Assembly: GCA_050084515.1 (NCBI GenBank)
Contig: CM114271.1
Location: 18,724,001-18,788,000, forward strand
Origin: Blasia pusilla
Lineage: Eukaryota
Direction of reading: 5' to 3'
Length of the DNA stretch: 64,000 bases
The notes beneath the pieces are model-generated. The model did not search any database and had not been told where the DNA came from. It saw nothing but the letters and a program-made list of their open reading frames with translations. This document shows, piece after piece, positions 1,586 to 31,917 of the stretch; positions within the stretch are counted from its first letter, which is position 1, and each line of letters begins with the position of its first letter. Both the position numbers and the translations under genes were made by a program.

Positions 1586-1597
1586 AGTTCTTTGAGT
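1586..1597 (-). promoter_or_regulatory. Putative self-priming primer-binding site of family A
   Basis: ACTCAAAGAACT (minus strand) lies immediately after the terminal repeat and is the exact complement of 1759-1770 inside the repeat. There is no TGG-type tRNA PBS. Confidence 0.6.
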
Positions 1598-1962: not shown

Positions 1963-3376
1963 CGTTTGAGAACTTGGCGATTACGCAACATTGGGATACG
2001 TTGGGGTATGCGACTATTCGGGGAGGTGGTTATCGACCTACTATCCGGAGGTTTCATCAAGGAGACTATGTCTAGTTGGAGCAGACGGCATCCACAACGT
2101 TGGATATGACTGCAGGGCGCACCATCTTGAGAGTGCGTGAGATTTTGCAATATGGTTTCTCTTATAGGAGGGACGTGATGGTATGGTTTGGAAGCACCAT
2201 GTGCATAACTTTGCGCCATGTCATCTTGCAAACATTGACCGTATAGTTGATCTGAGATTAGCAGTAGTTCCTGCAGGCTTGAGATGTATGTTGTGTGGTT
2301 CCGCCCGTGGTGCTACTATTATGCTAGTCTATGATAGGTGTTCGAGAGGATGGCATATGGCATGTCTGACGCCATCTCTCACTAGGGTTCCTCAGGGACA
2401 ATGGATGTGTCCCAGATGTACATAGAGTAGATAGTCCTAGATTCTGACTTGTGTCTATGACATGGATGACAAAAAGGCGACTAATGATGGGACCACATGA
2501 GCACACAAAATTTTTGCTCTTAGCTTCCGAGAGATGTATGTCATAGTAGGTAGGGATAGATGGCTATCTGGAGTTAGAGGGACCTAACCACCAGCTAGGG
2601 GGGTGATTGGAGATATTTTGGTACTTCTTGTCTTGTTGTTTGGATGCCATGAGTTAGCATGGGATCGTGTGTGTTTATGTGTGTGTTCGGTGATAGCGAG
2701 GTATGTTGTGTAGCGATGTGCATGCGCATGAGAGCTATCACGTCTGTTAGGATAGATCGGCGAGATCTGGTAGAGCGCCTTTGCAAGTAGAGGAGGATAT
2801 GCTAAGGAGATCAAGGATGACCTGCAGAGGCTACGGGTAACTTGCGAGAGCAGGTTTCCCCTTTGTTTCCACTCATTTGGAGCAATATAGAGAAACATAC
2901 TATTTTGGGTAAGTTTCTATTTTGGTAGAGTCAACTTTCCACTTTGGGAAGTGGCCCTTGACCGGCTATAGCAGGTCAAAAGCCAAGGAGGTGACCTGTG
3001 AGCCTAGGTTACCGAGGAGAGCGCTTGGGAGAGGGAAGGGGGTATTCCTTCAAGAGAGAGAGAGCTTGAGAGCTCATTCTTTCTTTGTTGAACCTCTTAG
3101 CACGAGACGGTGGAGCTATGGTCTCTTGCCTTGTGAGTGTAACCCCAGCCTCTTATTAGGAGAGTGGGTTTGGTTTGACATTGAGAGAGACATGTGAGAG
3201 TGCACACATTTGAGAGTTATGGTGTTGGGAGAGATTGGATCTTGATTTATTGGAGATAATTTGGTACTTCTTGTCTTGTTGTTTGGATGCCATGAGTTGG
3301 CATAGGATCGTACATGTTTATGTGTATGTTTGGTGACAAAAATATATATTGTGTAGCTATATGTATATGCACGACA
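1963..3376 (+). mobile_element. Family A copy 3 (diverged subfamily): 3' end with integrase C-terminus, PHD finger, PPT and B-A-B' terminal repeats
   Basis: 1963-2600 is homologous to ~25120-25750. PPT CTAGGGGGG lies at ~2595-2603. 128-bp direct repeats at 2606-2733 and 3249-3376; the second ends GCACGACA. Confidence 0.8.
2183..2425 (+). pseudogene. PHD finger at the integrase C-terminus of family A copy 3
   Basis: CMLCGS...MLVYDRCSRGWHMACLTP...WMCPRC is a C4HC3 PHD pattern with one Cys mutated. Confidence 0.8.
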
Positions 3377-8516: not shown

Positions 8517-10995
8517 CAGGGTTCGGTAAGTTTTTTCTATTTGTCGGCCCAATACCGGGAAATGTCAAATTTCCCGGTTTTTCTTTTTTATACCAGCGGC
8601 GACCGAAAACTTTTGCAGTTACTGGTTTTTTCCCAAACCTTTTTTCCCGGGCTGTTTAAATCTGACAGAAACTTTTTTCCTTTCGGTCTATTTCTGATAC
8701 TTTTTTTTTCCAACCACATTTCTGCCAACTTTATTTGGCCTAGCCACATTTCCGGTTCCATTGTTTCTCTGTCAGCAACTTCAATTGCTTTTTTTCTGTC
8801 ACTCACTTGAAGTTTCCTTCAAGTTTCCCTGGTACTCAACTTCCCAACCCTTTTCTCTGTCAGTAACTTCAAGTTTCCTTGGTACCCAACTTCCCAACCC
8901 TTTTCCCTCAGTTTCATTTTAGGTAACTACTACTTCCAACTTCCTAGCTCCTACATCAGCATCCTTGGTAGGAGTTGAACCTGGCAAGCCTCCCATCCAT
9001 TGGGAGCCAAAGATCTTAAATTCCTTGTTCCATACAAAGGATTTTATCCTCATCCTTGGCAGGAGTTGAACCTGATTACTCTCCCACCAGTTGGGAGCCA
9101 AGGATCCTACCCCTCTAGAATACTAGGAGCCTCATTGCTCCAAGCATTCTAGAAGGGTCCTACTCCTACTTCCTAAAACACAAAGGCTAAGATGTATCAG
9201 TAGCTTCCTCTTCCACAACTGGGGAGACATATCTATCTGGATTTGCAAACAAGTACCTAAAATGAGCATAATTCTTCCACAAGACCATAGACTCAGACAA
9301 TATATCCTCATAATGAGAGGACGGTCCTTCCAAGGCAATCCTCAAAACTGCATCCAAGTACTTGGTGGACAACCTGTTACGAGATTTAGTCTTGATCATA
9401 TTCTGAATGGAAAATGCTCTCTCACATATGGCAATACTAACACATTGGACCCTAGCTACATTTGCCTAAATCAACAAATTAGAAAATTTACATTGTAGAG
9501 AGGGACTCCAACTCACCATAGCCCACAAGTCTCTGAAGTTGCGATCCTTCCACTCAATGGTAGCCATCAATTTGAAAGACTGAAACTCTTGCTTTATAAG
9601 TGGAGAATTAATGATTGCAGGTTGCAATTGATCTTGCAATGGCAACTGGGCTCCGAAAAAACCACACAAATCATCTAAATCTTTACATCCCCAACTACTC
9701 AATCCCACTTGCCGTGATGGCATGTGCAAAGGATTAAGGATTTTCATTGCACCAACGAGGTTGTTGTCTCAAAATTGATCATGTAAAGTTGCACACACAC
9801 TTTCAGCAAACCTTTTCTGAAAGAACAAGGCAGCCTCTAAGTCACTTCTTGTCCGATCCCGAGACATACATATGCTATGAAATTTGTTTCCCCTGATCTC
9901 AGACTATAAACGACGAAGATAACCACCAAGTGGCCCAAAGTCAAGAAGTATATGGTAACCTGTTTCTTCAGAGAAGGTTGAAGCATTCAAGTCATGAGTT
10001 TCCATCACAAAATTCATGGTTATCCTAGCTATCTCAGAATTGACAATGCTCCCAATTGTGCTAACATCTACAAACTGGTACTGAAATATCTTACTCAAAC
10101 TAGCAAGCATGGAAAGAATGTCAGCCAAAAAATACAATTGATAGATCATTTGGAATGATCTCAACTTGTTAAACAAGTTGACAACATTCCCATCATCCTC
10201 TGAAGAAGATATATCTCTGAAGTACGTCATTACCGATTCTAAAGAATCACACAATGTGGTCACAGCTTGCCAACGGGATAACTACCGAATCTTGTGGTAT
10301 CTCTTCATGACTCGCTAGGAGTCATTCAATTTTTCCTGCAAAGATAACAAGATTGTTTTTCTCTTGGAGGACCTTCTAAAGTAGCTAGCTACAGCATTGA
10401 GAATCCAGTCAACTTCAGAGGAGATTGACTTACAATGAGGAGCTTTGGCAGTTGATAAAGCGGCCAGATTTGTTCTATGGGCTACACAATGAATTGAAAA
10501 AATGTAGGGATTTACCTTCTGCCTCAATTGAGAGGCTACACATGTCTAGCAACCTACCATTGTTGAGGCACCGTCAGAACCAAATGCAACCATTTTGGAG
10601 AATTCCAATCCTCCATCTTTCAATAGTTGCAGCAAAGTTTCGGTAATAGCATTAGAACATTTTGATTCACAACGAATTAAACCTAGAAAACAGGATTCTA
10701 CCTAGCCCTCTTCAATGAAAGTAGCGAACACGACCAGATGCCCTGTTACGGATATGTCAGTCGACTCATCGATCATAATTCCAAAGAAAGGAGAGGCTTG
10801 AACTCTAGCAAGACTTCTACTAAGTAGGACTTGGCTAATGAAATAAGACATTTCACTACAACTCTTCTCTTTGGTAATGGGAGCATTAACAGAAACTAAC
10901 AACTTACAAAGAGTGGAGAATTTGATAAATGGAATAGCCTCCTTCGCAAGGAAGTATGCACATTTAAACAATGTCATCAGAGCGGCTTTGCAGGT
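8517..10995 (-). mobile_element. hAT DNA transposon C2, 5'-truncated, disrupted transposase
   Basis: TIR CAGGGTTCGGTAAG at 8517. Transposase fragments at 9187-10977 are homologous to C1 (CERAFS, HCVAHRTNL, DESTDISV). Homology to C1 stops at ~10995, where family A sequence begins. Confidence 0.85.
8961..9105 (-). ncRNA. Two tandem tRNA-like modules (8961-9014, 9052-9105) in hAT C2
   Basis: 9052-9105 minus strand: ATCCTTGG/CCAAGGAT stem, CTCCCA-ACTGG-TGGGAG hairpin, CAGG-TTCAACT-CCTG T-arm. Confidence 0.5.
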
Positions 10996-11607
10996 GTTGC
11001 GAGTCTGACTAGCACGTCATCGACCCGCGGCGGAGTAGCTATTGCGTTAGAATTGTGTGGTGGGTTCTGTGGATTCAGGGGGCGCCACGTTTGGTGGATT
11101 GTGTTACCTTGATTTCCATTTGCGATTGGAGGGTTGTCGTTGGACTTCCTATGTTTGGATCCCCTCCATCGTTGCTTCTTGCTTGCGCGCCCATTGTTAG
11201 GGTTGACGCTGATTTCCACAGTGGTGTTACTCCTGTGTGCTACCGGTAGTGAGGCTGGAGTGATGACGAGTAGACCGTGGGAGGCTTCTTGTGGTGATGA
11301 CAGGTTAGGTTGCCTACATCCATAGCTAGTAGAGCTAGAATAGTACAGCAACATCGACGTCACTTGGTTACTTAGTGGTGGTAATTTGGTGGTGGTGCGG
11401 CATCGGCGTTGGTCATCACAGAGCTATCTGGTGGTCTGTTTGGGGACCGTGGTGCGGACAGTGGTGCTTTCACACGGAGTGGATTGAGGTATCGGCTACC
11501 TTTTCCATGAAGAGGAGGACGAGGGTGTTCCAAACACCGAGTCTTCTACGTTGTTATCGAGTGTTGCAGCTCCATTGATTTGGGACATGGACGGGATATA
11601 TGGGGCC

Positions 11608-12750
11608 ATGAAGGGCCCACGATGATACTCGGGTGCAGTGGGCATCATTGAGTTGGAGGACTTCATGCAGGAGTTTGATACGTGGTGTGATATGCAGATG
11701 TTGCGGAACGCCACGTTATTTACTATGTGTCTATCACCCATGGTGGTATTGGTAGTAGTGCTCCTACTATGCCAGCCAGCCCGACGTTGAGTGGTACGAG
11801 TACGAGCCGGAGTGGGGGTACCAGTGGAGGTACCCATGGAGGTACCAGTGGGGGTACTAGTGGATGTACAAGTGCCCCACCATCGTTCAGCCCGATTGCA
11901 AAGTTCTTCAACAGGTTGAAGAAGAACTATCAGGGAGTGAAGACAGAGAAGTTGAGGAGTCTTCAGGAATTTGAGCGAAAGACTGGTGAGAGTCTTCGTG
12001 AGGCATACACTCGTATGCGACGCTTGATTTCAATTACCAGGTGTGTGGCGAGGCTCAGGCGAGTCAGTTTTGGTATGGGATCTTGGGATGAGAGTTGCGC
12101 CACAGGTGCGTGATGCTACTCTTATGAGTGATGATTCACCCACATTGACCTATGTGTTTGCTCTATCTGAGAAGATTGAGCTTAACATGGTAAAGGAGAG
12201 AGTGGTGACATCCGCATTCAGTAAGGATACAACAACTACTTCTCGTGTTCAGCAACCCACCTCACAATCTCGTAGTGGTGGTGGTGGTAGTAGAAGTGGG
12301 AGTTGTGGGGGATACACACGACCTCAGTCAGGTCCTAGAGGGACACTTGCCCAGAGACCATTGCCTTTGTTTGCTGCCCCGCAGCAAGGACAGTCATGTT
12401 GGACATATGGAGGTGATCATGTTAGGAAGTTTTGTCCCCAAGAGGATGGGAGACGGACTTTGGAGGATGGGCCTCAATCGGCCCCAACTCAGTGTGATCA
12501 TTGCGGGAGACCAGGTCATCCTCGAGAGCGTTGCTTTGATCTTCATCCAGAGTTGAGATCAGGCCGCCGCCGTGGTGGAGTAGCTCCGAGAGGCCGATGT
12601 GATAAAGGTGGTAGGGGTGGTAGAGGTGGACCAGTGGTTGGAGAGCCTACGGTGGCTACCCCTACCACTACGACAGAGTCAGCTATGGCTACCAGGATTG
12701 AGCAGTTGGAGCAAAAGTTGGCTACTATGGCTGGTATCCAACATAGATGA
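11608..12750 (+). pseudogene. Family A gag with two CCHC zinc knuckles (frameshifted)
   Basis: Gag-like EDFMQEFDTWC and GESLREAYTRMRRL. Knuckles CWTYGGDHVRKFC (degenerate) and CDHCGRPGHPRERC. Confidence 0.75.
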
Positions 12751-13093
12751 GGTTCGGGAGCAGGGGCTTCCACCTCTTATGGAGGGGATGATCTCTCTTA
12801 TATGGCGAGTGCAGCATAGGTTGAGGCATCAGCAGCGATTCTGAGAGGAGCCACTCGAGCGTCGAGCCACGTGGTGCTCTTGTGGAGTTGGACCCCACGA
12901 GGGTAAGGTGGGAGGCAAGGCTAGGCTTCCCCAGTCATTCTTGTTGTCTGAGGTGCTTAGGACTCCATCCATGGTTCCTACGCAGCCTATTGAGCTAACA
13001 ATGGGGACTGAGGCATCTACATCGCGTGTAGTAGACACGGATGCAACATCCAATGCTGTATTGCGGATTGCAACTTCAGTGTGAGGATCCCCA

Positions 13094-14005
13094 TTGTTTT
13101 CGGCCACAGAACTGATGGCTTTAGGAGTTGACTTAACTCATGTATTTCAGCTAGCAGCCACGTTGTGTGAACGTGGGGGTATTACTGCTACACATATTGA
13201 GGTGGATGAGGGTGTTGCGGTGGAGCGGCCCTCTATGTTAGGTGTAGCATTGAGTACCAATGCTACTTGGCAGGCAGCAGCGGTGAAGATGGATGCATTA
13301 CAAGCCCGGCCAGCCATTGGTCGTGAGAGGCTTACACCTGGTGTATGTATGTTGGACAACCGGAGTGGGATATTCCGATTGGTGAGTCCTACAGGACAAG
13401 TGTATAGACCAGATAGAGTCTTGTTAGACTCTGGTGCCCAACCTTTGATGTTGGGAAAGGCGGCATGTATTGGTTTGGGTATTCGGAGGTCAGAGCTTGA
13501 GCCTTGCCCATTCCAGATTCAAACATCACTTGGAGGAGCCAATGATAGGTCTCAATTTATGACATGGGAGAAGTTTTCTATACAGTTGAGACCAGATCAT
13601 GCCACTGATAGCTCCCGGTTGGGAGTACCTACAGTGGTCACATCAGCCGAGTCGTATGATGTACTAGTTGGAGGAGCTGTATTGTACCCAATGGGTTTTC
13701 AGATGGATTACTGGACTAAGACAGTGTCTTATAGACCTGGTTGGCAGTCCGAGGATGGACGTATGAGCAAGGTTCCTGTGAGATTTATTTATGGGGCTCG
13801 ACCAAGAGGGTCTTCCCCAACAGTGTTAGCATCTGTGGCTGGTTTTTGTGGAGTAGTCACTTGGCCAGGAGACTTTTTGGAGGGTAATGTTTCTGCTATG
13901 GATTCTCCTATGCATGAGGAGGTAGAGGAGGTCCCTAATTTTGCAACAATGGCATCCTCGTCGTTGGATGTGCCACTTTGGAGTTTAGGCGGTGCACTAC
14001 GGTAG
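13094..14005 (+). pseudogene. Family A aspartic protease region
   Basis: Retropepsin catalytic motif VLLDSGAQ and C-terminal YDVLVG. Confidence 0.75.
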
Positions 14006-14149
14006 GAGGCTGATTGCCTAGTGCAGGAGGCTTGGTGTGAAGCTGTTATACCTCACGAGGAAGAGTAGGCCACTAGGCGGACTCCTACTTCTGGTCCAGT
14101 TGGGTTATCCCCTTTGGATACAACATCCATTGTATGGCAGTATCCGTCG

Positions 14150-15110
14150 GAGGGCATTTGTGTGTTAGATCACTTTGGTGGGATTAGCACTAGTTTGGCC
14201 ATAGTGTTGCACGCCGGTATTCCTGTGCGGAGATACGTGTATGTGGAGCGAGATGAGACAGCTCACAGAGTCTCATCCCGACATATTGGTCAGTTGATGG
14301 GGAGATATCCTGAGTTGTTGCCGCCATCAGCTATCGTGGGTACCAGCGTGCTTTGCCGTCACACATTGCATTGTTGGGGGCGCGGACCTTGAGAGGGTTG
14401 GTCTTGTGGATTTGGTGATTGCTGGATGGCCATGTCATGGTCATACACGTGCTAGTTGTGGTGAGGGATTACACGACCCTAGGTCTCGATTTTTTTGGGA
14501 GATGTTACGGGTGTTACAATATCTTTAGGTTCATTAGGCACGTGCTACAGCTTACATTCTCGAGAATGTTCCATTGTTGGGTGACACTCGGACCCGGATG
14601 ATGGCGAGTATTCATGAGGTGCGGTCTTGGATTGGATCAGCGGTGTTGTTGGATGCAGCGCGAGTTGGCTTGCGTGCACATCGCCCACGCTTGTGGTGGA
14701 CAAACTTGTTGCCTAGGGAGGTTCTACGTCAAGCATATGATGCAGTGCAACGGGATCCTTGCCTTACAGTTGATAGTATCTTGGATACTGGGCGACTTTC
14801 TCAGGTGGTGAGGGTTATTGATTGGTCACCCATGGCAGTGGTGAACCGTGTGGGCCAGCCTAGGATGGCAATACCCACATTTGTGAGTTTTCCCTCGTCA
14901 CATGCCTACAAGGAAGGTGGTCCTGGGCTTGTATGGGATTCTCATGTGCGACAGTTGGTGGAGCCTAACGCTGATGAGAGAGAGCGTGCGATGGGATTTG
15001 CTACTGGTGTGACAACGATTGCTTCCATTTCTGAGGCTTCACGACGTTATGTGTTGGGTCAGGCCATGGACCTGAATTGTTTGACTTGGATTTTGAGTCT
15101 TAGTATGGCC
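14150..15110 (+). pseudogene. C5 cytosine DNA methyltransferase domain embedded in the family A polyprotein
   Basis: Motifs in canonical order: I VLDHFGGI, II YVERDE, IV VDLVIAGWPC (Pro-Cys at 14430-14435), V GLHDPRSRFF, VI ENV (14562-14570), VIII RAHRPRLWWTN, IX ERERAMGF, X LGQAMD. One frameshift and two TAG stops. Confidence 0.88.
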
Positions 15111-15399
15111 GAGCAGCGTCGACTTCGGACTATGTCTGTGGGTCTTCCACCCCTTGTAATGAGCTCGATGGCTACCGGGACGATAGAGGCATGGGCTAGG
15201 GGCAAGGAGAGTACTATTTTGCATCCTTGGAGTAAATGGGATGTAATGGCTGGGCATGTGGAGTTGGTTGCTCATGCTGATGGAGGAGTTATTTTCTCAG
15301 ATGATGGTGTAGCTAAGGGTGTACCATCTTGTGAGGGGGTTGCGTAGCAGCCAATGGCATCGTCCTCTCCCTCTAGTGTACCAGTGGAGGAGACTTGGG

Positions 15400-15924
15400 A
15401 GCCATTACTTGGGCCCAAGCTTACGGGAGGTGAGAAATGACGCTTGACACAGTTCCTACGTGCTTATAGGAGTTGTTTTGCCTTTAGCATGAAGGAGTTG
15501 GGTGCTCTGGTTGGACCCGGTATACGGATTGATTTGGCTCGTGATACGCCAATCTTCCGTCGTCCCTACCGATATAGTGATATGGAGAGGGACCTGATTC
15601 AGAGTAGGACGTTGGACCTTTTGGAGGCTGGATTAGTGGAGTTGTTGCATGGAGAGTATGCATCAACCACTATCATGCCTACTAAAAAGGATATGCATGG
15701 AAACTACACGAATAGGCGAATGTGTGGAGATTACCATCCTATCAATCGGCAAACAAAGGCCGATAGGTATGCCATGCCTACACTTGAGGAGATCTTTGAT
15801 CTGGTGGGCCAAGCAAAGATTTTGAGTACTTTGGATCTTCAGGCAGAATAGCATCAGTTGCCAATTCGGAGAGTGACAAGGCCAAGACAACATTTTGGGG
15901 TGTCAACTCTCATGGCAAGGATTG
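15400..15924 (+). pseudogene. Family A reverse transcriptase, N-terminal part
   Basis: PIFRRPYRYS, RMCGDYHPIN, YAMPTLEEIFD and LSTLDL are gypsy RT motifs. Confidence 0.85.
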
Positions 15925-16956
15925 TGTCGTGCGCCTACTCTCCTTGAACGTTAATCTTGTTTGTTGCGGAAGCGTGCGTTCAGTAGGTCACGCTCTCAAC
16001 GCTGATCTGCATCCAAACACGCACTTCGGTTAGTCGGGTCTTGGATCAATCAGCGGGATTACTTTCCGAGTTCTCGTCTCGGACTCTCTCTTCAAGCTCA
16101 ACCTTCCTAGTTTCGCGGTTTCCACACGGGCAAGTCTCGCAAGACTTGGGACAGACTTTCTGGTCGGTTCAGGAACCTGAAACGGCGTTTCGCGCCTAGC
16201 GGTTCCAACTGTCCGATGAACATCCAATGAGTTCCTCACCAAGACTCGCACGAAGTGAATCTCGGGTTCGAATCCAAGTGTGGCGTACAAAGTCCACTCC
16301 CTTGGATCAGGTTTGGGTTTCGGGTTTCCGCGCCAAACTCCCGTTTCATCCCGTGCCTCTGAAACGCCGTTTGGCGCCCAAAGTGGGGTTTCGTTTCCCG
16401 AGACATCTCAACGAAGGTACTCCCCTTACTAGTACTTCTGGGGATCTCCGGGGGCCCCCTACATTTAGGGAAAGACACCCGGGCCCCTCCAATTGGCCCT
16501 CAACCCAATTGCTCTCTGAATCGTTTTCGGCCAATATCTCAGCCTGTACTTATGCGTTTGCTGAGATCTTTGGTGCGTTGGAAGCGTCTTGAGATCAACT
16601 TTCCAACGCGCCCTTATTTGTCCCGAACGCATCTTGGAGCTCAACGTTATGGTCCTAAACACAGTCAGATTCTCCCAAACGCTAGTCATGTTCCAAACTG
16701 GTTCTCACCTCTTTGGCAACCAACCTCCAAGACTCAACTCATCTCAAGTCTCAGCTTGCGTTTGGTCTAGGTTTCCTGGTTGCAACCATTAACGCATGAA
16801 ACGCACAACTCTGTGCCGCGTTTCGTCTCTTAGACTTTTCCAAGAGACTCTTCCAAACGCCTCTCCAAAGCGCAAACCTCGCGGCGTGAGTTCCTTTGAG
16901 TTCTGATGTTTCGCTTGGCGCGTATTTGGTGTTGTTTGGTTATGAGGGTCGCGACA
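15925..16956 (-). repeat. 3' LTR of family B copy 1
   Basis: Direct repeat of 22014-23041. Preceded on the minus strand by PPT AGGAGGGGTGAG (16957-16968). Confidence 0.92.
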
Positions 16957-17649
16957 CTCACCCCTCCTTAGAAGGTTGATGTCCTCATCAATGCAAACCT
17001 TATTGATGTTAAGTTCTGGAAAGCCGACCCCTTAACACAGAATCGCGTTCTGGTAGCTAACCCGCAATTCCTCTTTTTGGCTTAAGTCTTAGGTTTGTCG
17101 CTTAAAAGACTTAGACTTATTAGCTTCGCTTTCTACGATGAGCCTAGACTAGTTCTGCCAAACTAATCTAACTATCAAAATAAGCTCACTAAGTGCAACC
17201 TAACACTTCACTCACTATTTGTAAACAAACTTTGTCTTCCTAGCCAACTCGTACTATTTTTGGGTCACCTGTATTCCACCTAGGCGCGTCACTAAGTTCA
17301 GTCATGAAACATGAATGAGATCACCACAAACCCCAAGACAGACTCATCTGCCCGGCCGACTTTAGGGCGAGCCCAAATGCTAGTACTTCAACACTTGGTC
17401 CTGATCTAGATGCCTTATCTGAATACAAGCTCTCACCTCAAATACTCATTGTTTGGTCTCCTTGACTTACATCCTAAGCATATGAAGAACTACTCATTGC
17501 CTTGCACAAACCAAACTCAAAATTACAATACAAGCATCGAATCTCCGAATCCATGTCTTCTTTATTGCAACAACTAAACCTTTCTAGTTACAACGGGTTA
17601 TCGGCCCAAGCTTTCCGGTCACAAGTTATGTCCATTGCTTCACCATGTA

Positions 17650-20600
17650 CTAACGCACGTGCTTTGCTTGCATCCATCTGAAGTCACGCAATGCTTCTTG
17701 CGCATGTTCTAGATCCGCCTCCGCAATCCAAGTCGCCTCTTTCACATGATAGCCTTTCCACTTGACCAAGTACTCGTACTTGGTGGCCCTACGTCTGGAA
17801 CGCAGAATAGTCTCAACCTCGAACTCTGGTTCCTCATTTCTGATGACCGGTTGTGGTCTCAACATCCTCCTTCGCTCCGGACGCACATTGTCTTGAAGAT
17901 ACTTCTTCAATAATGACACATGGAAAGTCGGGTGAATCTTGAACTCGTTTGGCAGCTCCAACGTGTACACATCCTCAAACGGCCTTGCCTTGATCACATA
18001 CGGTCCAGCATACTTGGCTGACAATTTCATGAGACAATTCTTTCGAAGAGTGAGATTCTTAACACTCAACCACACTTGTTCCCCAACTTGGAAACTCACA
18101 TGGCGCCGACTTTTGTTAGCATGCTTTACGTACCTTAGTTGAGCCTTGGCGAGACTTTCTCTCGCTCGCTCTTGTCGTTCCTGTATTTCCACTAACAAAC
18201 ATTCCGCCGTTGCTTGACGAGTGTGTGTCGATGTATTTCCCTTCGAAAGAGCTAAGTCAAGACGCCCTTCTGGTTCTCTTTGATACGCCAGAAGAAACAG
18301 AGATTCTCCGGTTGCAGAATGCTTAGTCAAGTTGTAACAATACTCAGCCATACTTAACCACTTGGCCCAATCTCTTTGGTCCGCACTCACGTAATTCCGT
18401 TAGTATTGGTTTACGACCGAGTTTACTTTTTCCGTTTGCCCATCCGTTTGAGGATGGAAGGCCGTACTAAAGCTAAGTTTGGTCCGGAACCTCCTGAATA
18501 GATGTTTCCAAAAGGCACTGGTAAACTTCGGATCCCGATCGGACACAATGCTCCTAGGCAATCCGTGCGCACGCCACCAACCATCCAGGAATAGTCGGGA
18601 AGTCGTGTAGGCCGTCGCAGACTCTCTCGTAGGCACAAACCTCCCCAACTTGCTAAACCGATCAACTATCACAAGTATAGCGTTGTATCCCTCGGTCTGG
18701 AAGACTCGTAATGAAATCCATGCTAATGCTTTGCAAGGGTCCCTCCGGATTGGCAAAGGATGAAGTAAACCTTGTTTCTTCGCATAAGACACTCGGTTCT
18801 TTGGCGGAGTCACGCATGTTTTCACATATTGAGCAACATCTTCCTTCATGTTGGGCCAGAAGAACCTCTTAGACAAAACAGCAAGAGTGGATTTCTCCCC
18901 TTTGTGTCCCGTCAAAGGTCCATCATGACCTTCCACAAACACCTTGGTCCGTAGCTTGCCTTGGCCTACATAGATCCTGCTCTGCTTAAACCTTAGCAAG
19001 CCATGTCTCAAACTCAGATTGGCCACCTTCTCGCCCCGCTTTAACTTCCCAAGGTACTCCCTCGCTTGTTCATCCTTCATGTATCCTTCACGAATCCTTC
19101 TTTCCAGGTCTGTTTCATTAGGGAACATTGCTCTCAACACTTGTGTCGTCGATGGCATGTGTTCATCCCTGCGACTTAACGCATCTGGAATGACATTGTC
19201 TTTCCTCGGCTTGTGGATTAGCTCCACATTCATCAACGCCAAGGTATCATGCCACCGAAGTTGTTTTGGCGTCACGCGATCCTGGGTCTCAAAATACTTG
19301 AGCGATATGTTATCGGTGAATACTCGAGTCCTGTGAAGTCCCAAATAGTGACGCCACTTCCTCAAGCAATGAACCACCGCAAACAACTCTTTCTCATGAG
19401 TAGGCCATCTCCTTTCGGTGTCGGTCAGCTTCTTGCTTTTGTATGCTACAGGTCCCCCTTTTTGCACCAACATTCCTGCAATCGCGAAATCACTACCATC
19501 CGTGTGCACCTCAAGCGTTGTTCAAACTCGGCAGTTTGAATGGTTCTGCGAGAGGATCTCTTTGACTCGATTGAACGCTTTATCCACTTCCTCGGTCCAT
19601 GTAGTATTGGCAAACTTTGCGGTCCAATCCGTGAGAGGTTTCACTATGCCCGAAAAATTCTTCACGTATGTCCGTAAAACGGGCGACTCGATGAACCTTC
19701 TCATCCCTTCACCGTGGAAGGCGGTTCCCATTCGGCAATCGCGCTCACCTTTTCCATGTCCGGACTCACTCCATCCATGCCCGACCACATGCCCCAAGAA
19801 CTTGATCTTCGTCAAACCGAACTCACTCTTATCCGCATTTGCATACTGAGCTTGTTCGCCTAAGTTTCTCAAACACCGTCTTCAAATGTCGGCGTGCTCC
19901 TCTAGCGTTTTCGAATAGATGAGTATGTCATCTATATAGATGATCACAAACTCATCCGTCTCCTTGTGAAAGATGGAGTTCATCAAAGTGGTAAACTTCG
20001 GAGGCGCATTACAAAGACCGAAGGCATTACTACAAACTCGAGCGAACGTATCTCGTCCCCTGAGCGGTCTTCTCTACATCCGCCGGCAATCCGAATCTGA
20101 TAATATCGTGATTTCAGGTCAATCCGGCTGAAATACTTGGCACCCGACAATCGATCAAAGAGGTCATCCATCCTCGGTAGAGGATAGTTATTCCTTACCG
20201 TCACTTTATTCAGCGCCCGATAATCAACACAGAGTCTCAACTTCCCATCCTTCTTCTTGACAAAGAGGACGGGCGCCCCATAAGGTGACTTGCTCGTTCG
20301 GATGTAACCCTCTCTAGGAGTTCACCCAACTGTTTCTTCAACTCAGCAAGTTCCTCTTGATTCAACCTATATGGTGCCTTTGAAGGTGGTTGAGATCCTG
20401 GTATCACCTCAATCTTATGATCAACCGCCCTATGTGGTGGCAACTCAGTCGGAAGCTCCTTAGTCAACACATCTTCAAATTCTTTCACAACTCTCTTGAG
20501 TGTTTCAGGATCTCCCTTGAAGCTGAGTTCTGATCTCTGCATCTTGCGCTTGCATCATCCTCTACTCGTCTCATCAAGCAAAGGAATCCTTCCTCTAACT

Positions 20601-21861
20601 CGGCCAAACTCGTCCTCGTGATGGCGTTCACCAACTCCGTCTTTCTAGGCACCTCACGAACCAATCTGACGTTCGTCCGTTTGCCGTTAACCAAGACGCT
20701 TAACCTCAAAGGTCTCCGCCTCAGTTCCACCTCATACGCATCCAAGAACGTGTTCCCCAAGACTCCGTCGATACCGTCCATCTCGCAAACTGTAAAATTC
20801 TCCTTCAACTCAAATACTCCGCATCTCACAACTCGCCCTAAAACCAGATCTGATGTCTGGTGGGATTTTCCTCCCGCGAATCCTACCCTTATGGGTTCAT
20901 CCGCTTTGGTGGTTGGCTTCGCGTTGAGTTCCACTCGTTTCGCCGGTGGGGCAAGAGACCCTCCGTGGTCACGCTCACCCCCATTCCAAACCCTCTTGGA
21001 TGTCCCTTTGTTCTTCTGTAACTTAGAAAAACTTTTTGTCTCAAAGGGTTTCGGGTGTTGGACTTCATCGTCCCCAATCCGCTCGGCTAGTCTCAAGAGG
21101 TCCGCGCACGTCTCTGGGATGTGAGGCATACGAAAGAGAGCCTTCTCGGCACTCGGTTTGAGCCCACTTAGGAAGATCACCTTTTTAGTATGTTCATCCG
21201 TGGAAAGTGCATTCATGAGCGCACTAAACTCTCGCACATAAGCGCCAAGTGATCCACTCTGGCGCAACCTCACCACCTCCATGCCATCGCGGTACTCCTG
21301 ATATTCCGGAGTGAATCGGTTCCCAATCAACTCCTTGAAATCTTCCCAACTCAACGTTTTCCCACGACCTAGATGTTCTTTCCGGTGAGCCGTCCACCAA
21401 TGGAAAGCGTGATCCTTTGGAAACGTGACCGCTACAGTCACCTTGTCTTGTTCATCTGCCTTTTGCGCTTCGAAATAGAGTTCGAGTTCCGTTAGAAACT
21501 CGCTCACTTTCCGAGAACGCCCCATTCCTGTGAATGGCGTTGGCAAATTAGTCTTACAAAGCTTCTTGCCAGAACTAGAGGCTCCATTTGACTTGAATTC
21601 CGATATCACCTTGCTCTGTTCAGCCATCTGGTCCGCCATCACCTTCATCAATCCCATCATTTGGGTATAAAAGGCCGGATCGTTTAAGTTTGGACCCGAA
21701 GGTCCCGCGGAAAGATTTTCGGTTGGAACATCCTCATGTCTGGGACTTGGCACTTCGGGAGTCGCAAATTCCACCTCCGGCTCTTGGTCCGTCATTGATT
21801 TGTCTCTTGGCTTCTTTGCTTTGACTCGCGGTTTCCTCGGTTCTTCGCCCTTGGTCGCCAT
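17650..21861 (-). pseudogene. Family B gag-pol with C-terminal chromodomain (copy 1), multiple frameshifts
   Basis: ORF fragments with gag, [46 protein letters not shown] and a chromodomain. Confidence 0.88.
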
Positions 21862-21999
21862 TTGCGAGTCGTCGCCTTTTCTCAGATCTCCTCCTCGCCT
21901 CTTGCGTTCCTCCTCGGCGTCGCGGTCTTCCGGCTACCTTGAGTTCTTCCCAAACGTCCAGATCTTCAACGACCCCAAGTTCACGCTCATCAAGGAATT

Positions 22000-22011
22000 G
22001 CTCTGATACCA
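22000..22011 (-). promoter_or_regulatory. Primer-binding site complementary to initiator tRNA-Met
   Basis: TGGTATCAGAGC on the minus strand, 2 nt after the 5' LTR end. Confidence 0.9.
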
Positions 22012-22013
22012 CG

Positions 22014-23041
22014 TGTCGTGCGCCTACTCTCCTTGAACGTTAATCTTGTTTGTTGCGGAAGCGCGTCGCGTTGATGAGGTCACGCTCAACGCGATCTCCA
22101 TCCAAACACACACTTCGGTTAGTCGGGTCTTGGATCAATCAGCGGGATTACTTTCCGAGTTCTCGTCTCGGACTCTCTTCAAGCTCAACCTTCCTAGTTT
22201 CGCGGTTTCCAACACGGGCAAGTCTCGAAAGACTTGGGGAGACTTTTCAGTCGGTTCGGGAACTGAAAACGGCGTTTCGCGCCTAGCGGTTCCAACTTTC
22301 CGATGAACATCCAATGAGTTCCTCACCAAGACTCCCACAAAGTGAATCTCGGGTTGGAATCCATGTGTGGTTTACAAAGTCCACTCCCTTGGATCAGGTT
22401 TGGGTTTCGAGTTTCCGCGCCAAACTCCCGTTCCATCCCGTGCCTCTGAAACGCCGTTTGGCGCCCAAAGTGGGGTTTCGTTTCCCGAGACATCTCAAAG
22501 AAGGTACTCCCCTTACTAGTACTTCTGGGGATCTCCGGGGCCTCCTACATTTAGGGAAAGACACCCGGGCCTCTCCAATTGGCCCTCAACCCGATTGCTC
22601 TCTCAATCTTTTTCGCCCAATATCTCAGCCTGTACTTATGCGTTTGCTGAGATCTTTGGTGCGTTGGAAGCGTCTTGAGATCAACTTTCCAACGCGCCCT
22701 TATTTGTCCCGAACGCATCTTGGAGCTCAACGTTATGGTCCTAAACACAGTCAGATTCTCCCAAACGCTAGTCATGTTCCAAACTGGTTCTCACCTCTTT
22801 GGCAACCAACCTCCAAGACTCAACTCATCTCAAGTCTCAGCTTGCGTTTGGTCTAGGTTTCCTGGTCGCGACCATTAACGCATGAAACGCACAACTCTGT
22901 TCGCGTTTCGTCTCTTAGACTTTTCCAAGAGACTCTTCCAAACGCCTCTCCAAAGCGCAAACCTCGCGGCGTGAGTTCCTTTGAGTTCTGATGTTTCACT
23001 TGGCGCGTATTTGGTGTTGTTTGGTTATGAGGGTCGCGACA
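22014..23041 (-). repeat. 5' LTR of family B copy 1
   Basis: Repeat of 15925-16956, followed by the iMet PBS. Confidence 0.92.
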
Positions 23042-25589
23042 AATTGTTTGTACCAGTGGAAATTCTTACCCTTTGGGTTGAAGAATGCACCTGGCGAGTT
23101 TCAGAGAGTGATGGACAAGATCCTAGTAGGGTTGGATTTTGTTCGGTGTTACATTGATGATATGTTGGTGTTCAGTAACACGGTGGAGGAGCATCAGATA
23201 CATTTGCAGATGGTGTTTGAGCGGTTGAAAGCTCATGGTCTACGTTTGCATCCAAGAAAGTGTAAGTTCTTCCATGAGGATGTTGAGTACTTGGGTCATG
23301 TGATCTATCCAAGTGGTTTGGGAGTTCAGCAAGCAAAGGTGGAGGCTATTGCACTTATTTCGCGTCCAGTAGATGTGAGTAGAGTTCGGGCATTCATGGG
23401 ATTGGCGAACTACTATCGGAGGTATGTGAAGGGATTTAGTGCTATCGCAAAGCCTTTGAACCAATTGCTGAAATCAGATCAAGAGTGGCACTGGGGAGAT
23501 GATCAGGAGAGAGCTTTTGTGGAGCTTAAGGCCCAATTGGTGGCGGCGCCTATCTTGAGGAGACCTATCAGAGGGCGCCCATTTCAGTTACACACTAATT
23601 GGAGTAGGTTGGGACTTGGAGCGGTGTTGACACAACATGATGATGAGCACATGGAGTTTTTGGTGGCCTATGCAAGTCGTTCGAATAATGCAGCGGAGTC
23701 GCGCTATAGTTCATATGAGGGAGAGTGCTTGGCAGTAGTGTGGGTTGTGGCACACTTTAGGTGTTACTTGTTTGGCACACAGTTTACCCTTGTTACTGAT
23801 CACCAGCCGCTCAAGTGGTTGATGGAGTCTGACAAGCTTACAGGGAAGCTTGCACGGTGGGCTCTTATCTTACAGGAGTATAACTTCCAGGTGGTACATA
23901 GACTTGGAGTTGCCAACCTTGATGCTAATGGGTTGAGTAGGAACCCATGTACTAGCCAAGAGGATGCAACTGGGGCTACATGGCATGGCGAGGTTGATGA
24001 GGAGATGGTGCCAGGTTGGCATGCATCCATCTTTTTATGTTGGTTAGGGGTGGACTCTAGTATGAAGGACCACATGACATCTTACTCTAGTCAGAGGGTA
24101 GATGGCCAGCCTTCAGATCCTAAGGTTGGAGATGGTGGTATGGATCAGCGTGATATTCATGATGATGCGTTGGTGTTGGAGTTCCTACGGACCAGTAGGG
24201 TGTCAGGTATAGTGATTGCCAAGGAGCGAGACCGTGTTCTTCAACGTGCTAAGAGGTATCGATTGGAGGGAACACATATTCTCTGTGTGTGGGAGGATGG
24301 TAGAGTACAAGTAGTGCCGCATTTGGCTTAGAGAGAGCGCATTGTGCGACATGCCCATGAGGAGTTGGGACATTTTGGGGTAAAGCGTACGTATAGCTTA
24401 CTCCTTGGTCAGTATTGGTGGCGTGGCATGCATACTCAGGTGCAGCAGTTGGTGTCACGTTGTATGGTTTGTGACCGGGTGAGAGCATCATTCAATGCCC
24501 CTACACCACAGTTACACCCCTTGCCTATTATGAGGTTGGATTACCGTTGGAGTGTGGACTTTGCGGGACCGTTACCGTTGACTGTACGACATCATCGATA
24601 TGTGTTGGTGATGGTGGAGCACTTCTCCAAGTGGATTGAGTTGGTGGCATTACGACAAGGCAAGTGAGGAACGGCGTCGCGTTTCTTGATAGAGTGCTTA
24701 GTCATTTTGGTGCACCGGTTGAAGTCTTGACCGACTAGGTCTGAGTTTGAGGTGAGTTTGGTCTTGTATGACAAGGCGTTGATTGATCATCGGACCACGT
24801 CTCGAGATTATCCAGAGGCGGATGGTTTGGCTAAGCGTGTGGTTCAGACGGTGAAGAGGGCATTGCGCAAGTATGGCCTACAGAAGGGGCATCTTGGAGA
24901 CTGGGATATTCAGTTTCCATGGTTAGCCATGGGGTATAGGTTCAGTCGCCAAGCATCCTTGGCTTCCTTCTCACCTTATTTTCTGTTACGGCCGAGATCC
25001 AGACTTGCCAGCAGCAATTCGTTGGGAGTCTAGTGAGGTGGTGAACCTTGATGACCCAAGGATGTGGATAAGGATGTGTTCTCAACGGGCGGAGCTCTTT
25101 TGGAGAGTTATGCCAACAGCCTTTGAGAATCTTGCCATTGCTCAACATAGAGATACGTTGCAGTATGCAACCATTCGGGGTGGAGGTTATTGACCATCGA
25201 TTTGTAGGTTCCATGTGGACTATGTCTATTTGCAGCATATTGCACCGACAACGTTGGATGTGATGGCAGGCCGCACTATTTTACAAGTGCGCGAGGTGTT
25301 AGCTTATGGAGTTCTCATGTTGGAGGGTCGTGATGGAGTTTTTTGGAAGGACCATGTGCGTAATTGTGCGCCATGTCATCTTCCAAATGTGGATGGTACT
25401 GTTGACCCAAGCTTAGCCATGATACGTGCTAGCTTGAGGTGCATGTTGTGTGGGTCTACTGATAACGCAGCCCGTATGTTGGTGTGTGATCGGTGTTCTA
25501 GGGGTTGGCACATGATGTGTTTGACTCCACGTATGGATGTTGTTTCTACTGGAAGGTGGGTTTGTCCTCGATATATTTCGGAGAGGTAG
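23042..25589 (+). pseudogene. Family A RT (C-terminal part)-RNase H-integrase-PHD finger
   Basis: PFGLKNAP, CYIDDML, RNase H LVTDHQPL, HHCC HAHEELGH...CMVC, rve WSVDFAGPLP and PEADGLAKR, PHD CMLC...CDRC...WHMMCL...WVCP. Confidence 0.9.
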
Positions 25590-25752: not shown

Positions 25753-25823
25753 AGTTGTGGTACACTTATGTTTGTGGATGCTCTCATCTTTGTTATGTAT
25801 GTATGTGAGTATAGTATGTCAGC
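25753..25823 (+). repeat. First part of terminal segment B of family A copy 2 (resumes at 31918-31953 after the family B insertion)
   Basis: 25753-25823 plus 31918-31953 reconstitute a 107-bp unit that is repeated at 32321-32427. Confidence 0.8.
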
Positions 25824-26025
25824 TGTCACGACCCTCATAACCAAACAACACCAAATACGCACAAGCGAAACATTAGAACTCAAAGGAACTCACGCCGCGA
25901 GGTTTGCGCTTTGGAGAGGCGTTTGGAAGAGTCTCTTGGAAAAGTCTAAGAGACGAAACGCGGAACATAAATGTGCATTTCATGCGTTAGTGGTCGCGAC
26001 CAGGAAACCTAGACCAAACGCGAGC

Positions 26026-29000
26026 GAGTTTCTAACGGAACTCGAACTCTATTTTGAAGCGCAAAAGGCAGATGAACAAGACAAGGTGAGTGTAGCGGTC
26101 ACGTTTTCAAAGGATCACGCTCTCCATTGGTGGACGGCTCACCGCAAAGAACATCTAGGTCGTGGGAAAACGTTGAGTTGGGAAGATTTCAAGGAGTTGA
26201 TTGGGAACCGATTCACTCCGGAATATCAGGAGTACCGCGATGGCATGGAGGTGGTGAGGTTGCGCCAGAGTGGATCACTTGGCGCTTATGTGCGAGAGTT
26301 TAGTGCGCTCATGAATGCACTTTCCACGGATGAACATACTAGAAAGGTGATCTTCCTAAGTGGGCTCAAACCGAGTGCCGAGAAGGCTCTCTTTCGTATG
26401 CCTCACATCCCAGAGACGTGCGCGGATCTCTTGAGACTAGCCGAGCGGATTGAGGACGATGAAGTCCAACACCCGAAACCCTTTGAGACAAAAAGTTTTT
26501 CTAAGTTACAGAAGAACAAAGGGACATCCAAGAGGGTTTGGAATGGGGGTGAGCGTGACCACGGAGGGTCTCTTGCCCCACCGGCGAAACGAGTGGAACT
26601 CAACGCAAAGCCAAAGGGGCCGCCGTTTACAAAGTCAACGAATGCCAAAGTGATTTGCTACAATTGTGGCGAACCCGGGCATATGGCTAAGGAATGTGTT
26701 AGGCCCAAGGTTAGTAAACCGAGTATGATTGCGTTTGCCGCTAAGCATTTATCGGAGGGAGATCTAGATACATCTCTACAAGTCACCAAGAGAACGCCCA
26801 ATTTAGTTTACCTAGGATCCAAGATCGCTAATCGCGATGTGATGTTGCTCGTTGATACAGGTGCTTCGCACTCATTCTTGAGTCCGAGAATCGTAAAAAC
26901 GTTGGGATTTCCAACCACCAAGGCGGATGAACCCATTAGGGTAGGATTCGCGGGAGGCAAGTCCCACCAGACATCAGATCTGGTTTTAGGGCTAGTTGTG
27001 AGTTGCGGAGTATTTGAGTTGAAGGAGAATTTTACAGTTTGCGAGATGGACGGTATCGACAGAGTCTTGGGGAACACGTTCTTGGATGCGTATGAGGTGG
27101 AACTGAGGCGGAGACCTTTGAGGTTGAGCGCATTGGTTAACGGCAAATGGACGGACGTAAGATTGGTTCGTGAGGTGCCTAGAAAGACGGAGTTGGTGAA
27201 CGCCATCACGAGGACGAGTTTGGTCGAGTTAGAGGAAGGATTCCTTTGCTTGATGAGACGAGTAGAGGATGATGCAAGCGCGAGATGCAGAGATCAGAAC
27301 TCAGCTTCAAGGGGAATCCCTGAAACACTCAAGAGAGTTGTGAAAGAATTTGAAGATGTGTTGACTAAGGAGCTTCCGATTGAGTTGCCACCACATAGGG
27401 CGGTTGATCATAAGATTGAGGTGATACCAAGATCTCAACCACCTTCAAAGGCACCATATAGGTTGAATCAAGAGGAACTTGCTGAGTTGAAGAAACAGTT
27501 GGGTGAACTCCTAGAGAGGGGTTACATCCGAACAAGCAAGTCACCTTATGGGGCGCCCGTCCTCTTTGTCAAGAAGAAGGATGGGAAGTTGAGACTCAGT
27601 GTTGATTATCGGGCGCTGAATAAAGTGACGGTAAGGAATAACTATCCTCTACCGAGGATGGATGACCTCTTTGATCGATTGTCGGGTGCCAAGTATTTCA
27701 GCCGGATTGACCTGAAATCACGATATTATCAATTCGGATTGCCGAAGCGGATGTAGAGAAGACTGCCTGTAGGGTGAGATACGGTTTGTTTGAGTTTGTA
27801 GTAATGCCTTTCGGTCTTTGTAATGCGCCTCCGACGTTCACCACTTTGATGAACTCCATCTTTCATAAGGAGACGGATGAGTTTGTGATCATCTATATAG
27901 ATGACATACTCATCTATTTGAAAACCCTAGAGGAGCATGCTCGATATTTGAAGACGGTGTTTGAGAAACTTAGGGCGAACAAGCTATATGCAAATGCAGA
28001 TAAGAGTGAGTTCGGTTTGACGAAGATCAAGTTCTTGGGGCATGTGGTTAGTGCGGATGGAGTGAGTCCAGACATGGAAAAGGTGAGCGCGATTGCCAAA
28101 TGGGAACGGCCTTCCACGGTGAAGGGGATGAGAAGGTTCATCGGAGCTGTCCAGTTTTACCGGACATACGTGAAGAACTTTTCGGGCATAGTGAAACCTC
28201 TCACCGATTGGACCGCAAAGTTTGCCAATACTTCATGGACCGAGGAAGTGGATAAAGCATTCAATCGAGTCAAAGAGATCCTCTCGCAGGAACTAGTTCT
28301 GAAACTGCCGGAGTTTGAACAACCGTTCGAGGTGCACACGGATGCTAGTGATTTCGCTATTGCAGGAATGTTGGTGCAAAAAGGGAGACCTGTAGCATAC
28401 GAAAGCAAGAAGCTTAGCAACACCGAAAGGAGATGGCCTACTCATGAGAAAGAGTTTTTTGCGGTGGTTCATTGCTTGAGGAAGTGGCGTCACTATTTGG
28501 GACTTCACAAGACTCGAGTATTCACCGATAACATATCGCTCAAGTATTTTGAGACCCAGGATCGCGTGACGCCAAAACAACTTCGGTGGCATGATACCTT
28601 GGCGTTGATGAATGTGGAGCTAATCCACAAGCCGGGGAAAGACAATGTCATTCCAGATACGTTAAGTCGCAGGGATGAACACATGCCATGGACGACACAA
28701 GTGTTGAGAGCAATGTTCCCTAATGAAACAGACCTGGAAAGAAGGATTCGTGAAGGATACATGAAGGATGAGCAAGCGAGGGAGTACCTTGGGAAGTTAA
28801 AGCGAGGCGAGAAGTTGGCCAATCTGAGTTTGAGACACGGCTTGCTAAGGTTTAAGCAGAGCAGGATCTATGTAGGCCAAGGCAAGCTATGGACCAAGGT
28901 GTTTGTAGAATGTCATGATGGACCTTTGGCGGGACACAAAGGGGAGAAATCCACTCTTGCTGTTTTGTCTAAGAGGTTCTTCTGGCCCAACATGAAGGAA

Positions 29001-31914: not shown

Positions 31915-31917
31915 CAC

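Follow-up and report, generated by a model that had tools for sequence, protein, structure and literature searches.

A decayed gypsy-type retrotransposon copy carrying a DNMT3-like methyltransferase domain in Blasia pusilla, and its relatives in bryophyte records

Introduction

A stretch of 64,000 nucleotides of the Blasia pusilla genome (NCBI GenBank assembly GCA_050084515.1, contig CM114271.1, positions 18,724,001 to 18,788,000 of the forward strand; hereafter the window, numbered from its first letter) encodes, at 14147-15344 on the forward strand, a DNMT3-like C5 cytosine methyltransferase (DNMT) whose motifs I-X stand in unpermuted order. The domain is part of a retrotransposon in which tblastn with Marchantia and algal-type polyproteins, self-comparison of the window and Pfam together give the order Gag-protease (PR)-DNMT-stop-reverse transcriptase (RT)-RNase H (RH)-integrase (IN)-PHD finger, an arrangement that satisfies the Ty3/gypsy order PR-RT-RNase H-integrase. 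The element is a decayed Ty3/gypsy-type copy of a DNMT3-carrying family, the intact members of which would probably make their RT by read-through of a stop codon and methylate DNA with the enzyme encoded ahead of it. The window copy is dead, a fossil unable to make the enzyme, and the family to which it belongs is widespread in bryophyte records. Such elements present a paradox, in that transposons carry the type of enzyme that hosts use for silencing them.

Identity of the methyltransferase domain

A sequence-only reading of this DNA had proposed that six C5 methyltransferase motifs occur in canonical order between a protease and an RT. All six were located at the places it gave, in the order I to X (Table 1), and the collinearity was borne out by the LLDSGAQ motif of the protease upstream and the N-terminal part of RT downstream. 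In alignment with homologues the window copy reads GWPCHG (Q replaced by H) and HFGGISTSL. The suggested search with the Pfam profile PF00145 returned a match of 24.1 bits (E 2.9e-5; gathering score 22) to a read-through of 14298-15347 in which X was placed at both in-domain TAG codons; one of six separate stop-to-stop open reading frame (ORF) pieces matched, at a sub-threshold 18.1 bits, and intact relatives scored 35-45 bits. Identity of this stretch to intact homologues ranges from 66 to 75%. In a phmmer comparison of the window domain with PDB, DNMT3B and DNMT3A were the best matches (2.7e-7), followed by M.HaeIII (0.068) and DRM2 (0.34). A profile built from 18 family sequences matched DNMT3A at 8.9e-20 and DNMT3B at about 5e-18, motifs I-VIII and IX-X keeping their order in the alignment, the DRM enzymes of tobacco and Arabidopsis at 4.9e-9 to 2.4e-7, M.HaeIII at 3.7e-5, M.HhaI at about 4e-5, and DNMT2 at about 1e-3.

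The earlier statement that the domain is not a captured plant DRM enzyme is upheld by these scores, far lower for DRM than for DNMT3A, and by the motif order, which runs from I to X and is not circularly permuted as in DRM (VI-X before I-V). The DRM chains, moreover, align with positions 13-140 of the family profile only. An AlphaFold2 model was made of the domain of an intact relative, locus L032, not of the window copy; it has a mean predicted local distance difference test score (pLDDT) of 79.3, with residues 10-350 mostly above 90. Foldseek placed the catalytic domains of DNMT3A, DNMT3B, and DNMT3C first (E 8e-20, template modeling (TM) score 0.83 on the target) at about 20-21% identity in the structural alignment. 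Host DNMT3A/3B/3C are thus the best matches in both sequence and fold and have an identical motif order, whereas the element lacks their PWWP and ADD domains and bears a PHD finger at the far end of pol. A search of the ESM Atlas with the Marchantia domain gave generic DNA_methylase clusters only. Across 15 sequences that include both of the domain architectures described below, the motif IV cysteine, the EN of ENV, HRxR, and DExE..MG are invariant.

Distribution of the family

Collinear relatives, 65-75% identical, are present in records of Marchantia, Riccia, Calypogeia, and Sphagnum. The read-through query retrieved 173 near-length and 38 longer homologous proteins, and the named records comprise Marchantia polymorpha (14 of the longer matches), M. 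paleacea, Riccia sorocarpa, Calypogeia fissa, and three Sphagnum species, so that every close relative with a name is a bryophyte. Among the Marchantia models there are uninterrupted Gag-PR-DNMT ORFs, such as P0123, and the motifs of this first ORF (ORF1) read LFGGISTGL, GWPCQG, ENVP, SRAHRARLWWTN, EPNADERERAMGF, and LGQAMDLN; two of the M. polymorpha models show RVT_1 and RNase H beside PF00145, and P0132 runs on into both. A scan of metagenome contigs, started from a nine-row alignment, yielded 79 loci, and a 90% cluster of the proteins from these loci includes records of Sphagnum jensenii and S. troendelagicum. When 1.84 billion cluster representatives were searched with the profile, 12,524 were found at E<=1e-3, 2,598 at E<=1e-10, and 513 at E<=1e-30. 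Two family members, P0060 and P0220, are labeled as proteins of bacterial metagenome-assembled genomes (Obscuribacterales, Minisyncoccia) and are probably from eukaryotic contigs that were mis-binned.

A sister architecture, RT-RH-DNMT-IN-PHD, was met in 114 matches from environmental contigs and is named in records of Haematococcus lacustris and Scenedesmus sp. These algal elements share with the bryophyte type a homologous DNMT (33-40% identical), RT, integrase, and PHD finger but carry the DNMT between RNase H and integrase. Uninterrupted algal-type copies (RH-DNMT-IN) occur at loci L059 and L061. In some algal-type polyproteins (P0157, P0164, P0213, and P0217), a G-patch domain (PF01585) lies between DNMT and integrase. 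A maximum-likelihood tree, unrooted, was computed for 60 of 152 non-redundant DNMT domains, namely all 15 in which DNMT stands ahead of RT or at the end of ORF1 (the latter label being heuristic) and 45 of the 137 that have the other arrangement. A single branch, with a Shimodaira-Hasegawa-like approximate likelihood ratio test (SH-aLRT) value of 98, separates the two architectures; the split requires one change, and none of 500 shuffles gave a number as low. Re-acquisition of a methyltransferase in this plant, which the sequence-only reading had offered as one possibility, is consequently not needed, as the lineage is old and is represented in several bryophytes and, with the other domain order, in chlorophyte records.

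The window considered by itself could be taken for a one-off passive capture of a host DNMT3 fragment, or for an artefact of assembly or nesting, given that this copy is heavily rearranged, contains two nested elements, and has lost its 5' end, and that DNMT3 genes are present in non-flowering plants (PMC5890265). Nevertheless, PR, DNMT, stop, and RT follow one another in a single frame in L032, the same order recurs in models from Marchantia, Calypogeia, and Sphagnum and in dozens of loci from metagenomes, and the ratio of nonsynonymous to synonymous substitution rates (dN/dS) lies below 1 between diverged copies. On these three grounds capture was rejected, and its probability is put close to nil; the family is widespread in bryophyte records and its DNMT has been maintained by selection. 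Neither outcome that the sequence-only reading had named as fatal to its proposal, a missing profile match or a domain confined to this copy without purifying selection, was thus observed.

Selection on the methyltransferase

Estimates of dN/dS, a comparison that had been called for at the outset, were made by the Nei-Gojobori method on codon alignments in which stop codons were skipped and N was placed at the breaks of the window copy. Against eight diverged copies the DNMT of the window gave values below 1 throughout, from 0.15 to 0.40: those against the Sphagnum-like group were 0.24-0.40 (dS about 0.7), and that against L032 was 0.15 at a dS of 2.2, which is near saturation. L032 compared with other copies gave about 0.2, again at near-saturated dS, and the window values are inflated by decay after insertion. 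For RT and RNase H the window's pairs gave 0.17-0.25 (10 pairs with computable dS). The DNMT has therefore evolved under purifying selection, if slightly weaker than in the case of RT, with the reservation that the values include neutral decay of both copies.

Open reading frame layout and the conserved stop

In L032 the element occupies one frame with single stops between its parts: gag-PR at 321-3194, DNMT at 3195-4511, and RT onward at 4512-6809, where the frame is still open. The stop after the DNMT is conserved in the family. Its position is unchanged in 35 of 58 alignment rows (34 loci and the window), where it is followed by CAA or CAG, and the Marchantia ORF1 models terminate at the same place. 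The stop precedes the start of the RT alignment by 51 nt in 34 rows, which are those of the window and of 33 loci, and by 54 nt in the remaining row. TAG is used in 26 of the 35 rows and TAA in nine, and the next six bases are CAACCC in 30, CAACCA in two, and CAGCCA (the window), CAACCT, and CAACTC in one each. Two divergent copies, L046 and L068, read TAG CAG TTA and TAG CAA TCA. A stop followed by CARYYA is the plant read-through consensus, in which the C directly after the stop is reported as the most important base (PMC5397192, in the part of the text available). The exact CARYYA is present in five copies, that is, the window, L019, and L032 among the 35 rows, together with L046 and L068.

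We infer that the RT-RH-IN-PHD portion is made by read-through of UAG-CAR-YYN. A separate pol start at an ATG 6 nt past the stop was rejected in favor of read-through because this codon is not conserved in L032, the most intact copy (GTG), or in L021. Gammaretroviruses express pol by read-through of the gag UAG, and the element resembles both this gag-UAG-pol organization and the tobamovirus-type stop-CARYYA in having an in-frame UAG and then CAR-YYN at a conserved place. It differs from them in that the stop is preceded by protease and DNMT, and in that its read-through is predicted. In L032 a second in-frame stop lies between protease and DNMT (3192-3194), where the Marchantia ORF1 models are uninterrupted.

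Termini and target sites

Copies of the family begin TGTCATGACC and end CGCACGACA, so that the ends read TGTCATG...CACGACA. The terminal repeats are split. At the 3' end the arrangement B1-NN-A2-B2 was found in five copies, namely L007, L028, L041, L053, and the window (B1-GC-A2-B2, 25753-32427), and L008 shows B1-GC-A2 as far as the end of its contig; A2, of about 340-366 nt, repeats the 5' start of the element, and B, of about 107-115 nt, is a second copy of the sequence that immediately precedes A2. At the 5' end A1 occurs without B, and paired full long terminal repeats (LTRs) were not met with in the family. The A2 of the window is 75% identical to A2-B2 of L007. Twelve other 3' ends have a single B joined to unique flanking sequence, and a pair with both flanks in common, L016 and L040/L041, has a single B in one and B1-A2-B2 in the other; the single-B end of this pair fits deletion by recombination between B1 and B2.

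Target-site duplications and TG...CA termini were tested on relatives, the window copy having no 5' end. In the five loci with both ends, perfect 4-bp duplications flank three (L021, L016, and L048) and a match at three of four positions flanks two (L019 and L011). A classical LTR pair, and with it LTR dating of the window copy, was rejected, there being no second A or LTR on the 5' side and the repeats of the family being split. Repeats of the form A1...B1-A2-B2 are a trait of DIRS-like elements of the Ngaro/PAT type. Membership in the DIRS order was nonetheless rejected, as a tyrosine recombinase and no target duplication would be expected there, whereas the present elements have Integrase_H2C2 and rve domains and 4-bp duplications in relatives. 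Because they have no paired LTRs, these elements would be missed or mis-bounded by LTR finders.

Decay of the window copy

The sequence-only reading had ascribed the interruption of the domain to one frameshift and stops of the CAG>TAG type. The stops hold good in the case of the two in-domain TAG codons, at both of which homologues have Q, but the frame change resolves into two 1-bp deletions, near 14333 and 14383. Frame 2 ends at about 14341, frame 3 begins at about 14370, and frame 1 in between encodes RGYQRALPSHIALLGARTL, which agrees with homologues; contigs of related copies have an additional T after 14333 and an additional A after 14383. In runs X16 and X17, guessed to be of RNA, contigs of 150-578 nt over the domain carry both frame-restoring bases. 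TAG 15345-15347 is not damage but the conserved ORF1 stop of the family. With two deletions and two TAG codons in the domain, an ORF capable of giving the enzyme is absent. A TGA at 15438-15440, in the N-terminal part of RT, stands where homologues have R, and further frame changes affect gag; two chromoviruses are nested in the element, and its 5' end is gone. At 83 places the window carries A or T against G or C in the majority of other copies, and at 39 the reverse holds. CpG-specific decay was considered and rejected, in that C stands before only two of the 17 listed G>A sites and G stands after three of the seven listed C>T sites.

Relation to known retrotransposon-borne methyltransferases

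Gypsy elements with a DNMT are known from the charophyte Klebsormidium nitens (KnitGypsy-Dnmt3; de Mendoza et al., 2018; PMC5890265). As described in the available part of that article, KnitGypsy-Dnmt3 has in common with the window family a gypsy-type pol and an unpermuted DNMT3-type domain in the polyprotein; intronless multi-copy genes and purifying selection on the DNMT (with Ka/Ks below 0.2 for the K. nitens element) are further points of likeness. The legend to Fig. 4c calls the repeat structure "the same as that of a DIRS retrotransposon", and the A1...B1-A2-B2 ends seen here fit that description. KnitGypsy-Dnmt3 has a charophyte host, whereas the window family belongs to land plants (liverworts and Sphagnum), and the two are likened by description, not by sequence; no K. 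nitens sequence was among the homologues from the protein and profile searches. Of the other orders, SymbioDIRS-Dnmt3 and SymbioLINE-Dnmt likewise represent a DNMT borne on a retrotransposon, but these are a tyrosine recombinase DIRS element and a LINE, whereas the window family has a DDE-type integrase with H2C2 and 4-bp duplications. Chromoviruses share the PR-RT-RH-IN order and a chromatin reader at the integrase C-terminus; the DNMT element departs from them in having a PHD finger in place of a chromodomain, the additional DNMT, split direct repeats, and a stop inside the polyprotein.

Judged by domain content and order, the window element is a land-plant member of the known Gypsy-DNMT3 kind. 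No description of land-plant elements of this kind was found in the literature searched, with the proviso that supplementary lists may hold bryophyte cases; two later papers speak, in their available text, of "streptophytes (Gypsy-DNMT3)" only. Marchantia is not mentioned in the available part of PMC5890265, and the Marchantia methylation literature searched lists, in its available text, host enzymes only. Detail is added to that kind by the read-through layout, the PHD finger, the split repeats and their target duplications, and the sister architecture of the algal type. A practical corollary concerns annotation: many bryophyte gene models named "DNA (cytosine-5)-methyltransferase" or "hypothetical protein" are in fact ORFs of transposons, to be left out of any tally of host DNMTs. 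The Marchantia and Sphagnum members, some with intact ORF1 models, bring the question of what such enzymes do into plants with transformation, mutants, and methylomes; in Marchantia, Mpmet backgrounds release transposons from repression.

Proposed mechanism and the evidence for and against it

In an intact member, most ribosomes would end at the UAG and produce Gag-PR-DNMT as an abundant product, and a minority would pass UAG-CAR-YYN and add RT-RH-IN-PHD. Because the protease would free the DNMT from Gag-PR-DNMT, the enzyme may be present in the particle at a Gag-like abundance, where, with S-adenosylmethionine (SAM), it would methylate cytosines, either in the new double-stranded cDNA or in the DNA where integration takes place. 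The sequence context is likely to be CG, to judge by DNMT3 and by the SymbioDIRS-Dnmt3 of Symbiodinium, for which de novo CG methylation in yeast is reported (PMC5890265, available part). The integrase-PHD portion may read histone tails and so influence the choice of site. The layout, with the DNMT upstream of a read-through-type stop, therefore predicts a high dosage of an enzyme that does not travel with the integrase, and the PHD finger may guide targeting. The enzymatic activity and a self-methylation role of the family are put forward on this basis by analogy. The observed/expected ratio of CpG is 0.55-0.59 in the DNMT element, 0.97 in a nested chromovirus, 1.07 in a host kinase gene of the window, and 0.28 in the near-intact L032, and the depletion in the element fits long-standing CG methylation of the lineage.

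Several observations weigh against this reading. CpG depletion would also fit age alone, and the flanks of metagenome copies are also CpG-poor (0.26-0.77). Most copies of the family are dead: a full-length DNMT stretch without stops is present in seven of 79 loci, and single-frame DNMT stretches without stops in four of 28. The 307 pairs that were usable, out of 406, have a median dN/dS of 0.55 (range 0.21-0.90), the ratio falls with divergence and near-identical dead copies give 0.5-1.0, so that purifying selection is visible between diverged copies only. In the main Sphagnum-like group the bases after the stop, CAA CCC, agree with five of the six consensus positions for read-through. The best DNA sequencing run (X1) shows the family to be very abundant, with 56,205 contig pieces at >=85%, and the frame-restoring base at 14333 or 14383 accounts for only about 7-10% of summed contig depth, so many near relatives in that run may share both deletions; the low restored depth may reflect the spread of a DNMT-defective subfamily, with no working DNMT in cis, or an artefact of depth.

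The domain may alternatively have been kept without being a DNA methyltransferase in vivo, serving as a DNA- or chromatin-binding module, as a silencing or anti-silencing adaptor, or as an RNA 5-methylcytosine (m5C) methyltransferase acting on element RNA. KnitGypsy-Dnmt3, the one streptophyte member with a published test, produced no methylation in yeast, a further point against the proposed activity, although its authors call the result inconclusive and human DNMT3B failed in the same assay (PMC5890265, available part). The algal-type copies L059 (6618-7607) and L061 (1874-2854) have GWACQD or GWECQD at motif IV, where the proline of the Pro-Cys pair is replaced and the cysteine is kept. Against such a role, intact members of the bryophyte type retain the catalytic cysteine, ENV, HRxR, and the SAM-binding FGG, and the predicted fold spans the whole DNMT3 catalytic domain. 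A non-methylating function is considered unlikely. Less probable again is an enzyme that acts on or for the host, whether on flanking host DNA, on competing transposons, or from domesticated copies whose element context is incidental. The many Marchantia gene models and the placement of the DNMT in the abundant ORF1 product, untied from the integrase, would agree with this, but these models are multi-copy and include gag, PR, and RT, there is no evidence for a single-copy locus with conserved synteny, and DNMT and RT are under similar selection, which is what a function linked to transposition would lead one to expect.

The reading preferred here, a decayed member of a DNMT3-carrying family with read-through and methylation in its intact members, can be extended to a more speculative scheme, offered as a tentative possibility that we consider somewhat doubtful. 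According to this scheme, all of these elements would form one ancient clade of the green lineage that combines an integrase and split repeats with a DNMT3-like writer and a PHD reader, and that still has intact members in Marchantia and Sphagnum. There the DNMT would have changed place a single time, to lie in the Gag-protease frame in front of a programmed UAG read-through, and a capsid-level dose of the enzyme would pre-methylate the element's own cDNA.

Element map and neighboring sequences

The features of the element and of the two other copies of the family in the window are collected in Table 1. The remaining 5' leader shows weak similarity to the 5' region of L021; nothing is left of the A1 repeat or of the other 5' sequence upstream, where hAT-like sequence adjoins at about 10995. 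The retropepsin fragment of the window gave no Pfam match, and its relative P0146 matched Asp_protease_2 at 23.6 bits, slightly below the cut-off of 24.3.

Table 1. Features of the DNMT element, its nested insertions and further family copies in the window.
Feature	Positions	Strand	Basis or remark
Second family copy, 5' end (A1 and leader), running off the left edge of the window	1..1962	-	self-comparison
Third family copy, older fragment: integrase C-terminus and PHD tail	1965..2606	+	70% identical to 25122-25753; tblastn to P0154
Remaining 5' leader	10987..11586	+	91% identical to reverse complement of 1-507
Gag, degenerate	11587..12861	+	tblastn to Marchantia P0123 residues 1-450, frames 1, 3, 2, 1
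Gag CCHC knuckles, two	12397-12414, 12493-12510	+	motif positions
Retropepsin region	12893..14005	+	64% identical to P0123
LLDSGAQ (DSG) of retropepsin	13421-13441	+	
DNMT3-like domain and ORF1 C-terminal tail	14147..15344	+	deletions near 14333 and 14383; TAGs 14526-14528 and 14535-14537
FGGI	14174-14185	+	frame 2
GWPC	14424-14435	+	frame 3
ENV(P)	14562-14573	+	frame 3
(H)RPR	14679-14690	+	frame 3
ERAMGF	14982-14999	+	frame 3
LGQAM	15054-15068	+	frame 3
Conserved ORF1 stop, read-through-type context TAG CAG CCA	15345..15353	+	
RT N-terminal part	15396..15896	+	79% identical to P0132
Nested chromovirus A, without DNMT	15924..23041	-	self-comparison; Chromo, rve, RNase H domains
RT C-terminal part and RNase H	23042..24283	+	RVT_1 2.1e-23, RT_RNaseH 1.7e-35
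YIDD of RT	23150-23161	+	
Integrase, H2C2 zinc domain and degenerate core	24221..24988	+	Integrase_H2C2 1.1e-16; tblastn to P0154 residues 1280-1537
PHD finger, C-terminus of pol product	25440..25574	+	PF00628 4.2e-10
Repeat B1, first part	25753..25823	+	93% identical to 32321-32391
Nested chromovirus B, same family as A, truncated 5' LTR	25824..31916	+	self-comparison
Repeat B1, second part, ends ...CGCACGACA then GC	31917..31953	+	31919-31953 100% identical to 32393-32427
Repeat A2, begins TGTCATGACC, copy of 5' terminal repeat	31956..32321	+	97% identical to reverse complement of 1597-1962
Repeat B2; element 3' end at 32427	32321..32427	+	

The LTRs of chromovirus A (15924-16956 and 22013-23041) are 95.5% identical. 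Chromoviruses A and B are about 95% alike, and B sits in repeat B1, of which B2 (32321-32427) keeps the empty site; both have a chromodomain and lack a DNMT. Two stretches at 46826-47824 and 50899-51906 are LTR-like copies of more distant kinship (71-75%). A transposase-like gene is present in four copies, at 4775-6625 (-), 9050-10995 (-), 32781-35124 (+), and 49383-50561 (-), one of which stands where the 5' terminal repeat of the DNMT element was; its match to DUF4371 is weak (20.5 bits, under the cut-off) and points to a family of the hAT-like or ZMYM type. A degenerate RT of the non-LTR type at 42669-44758 (+), with RVT_1 at 28.5 bits, just under the cut-off, and more ORF pieces after it, is probably a LINE remnant. 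Two host genes complete the window, namely a multi-exon WD40 protein gene at 37226-38848 (+) and, at 54117-56834 (-), the uninterrupted 904-aa G-type lectin S-receptor-like kinase used above in the CpG comparison, for which the ESM Atlas gave no finer placement than Streptophyta and which has Pkinase (7e-49), B_lectin, S_locus_glycop, and PAN domains.

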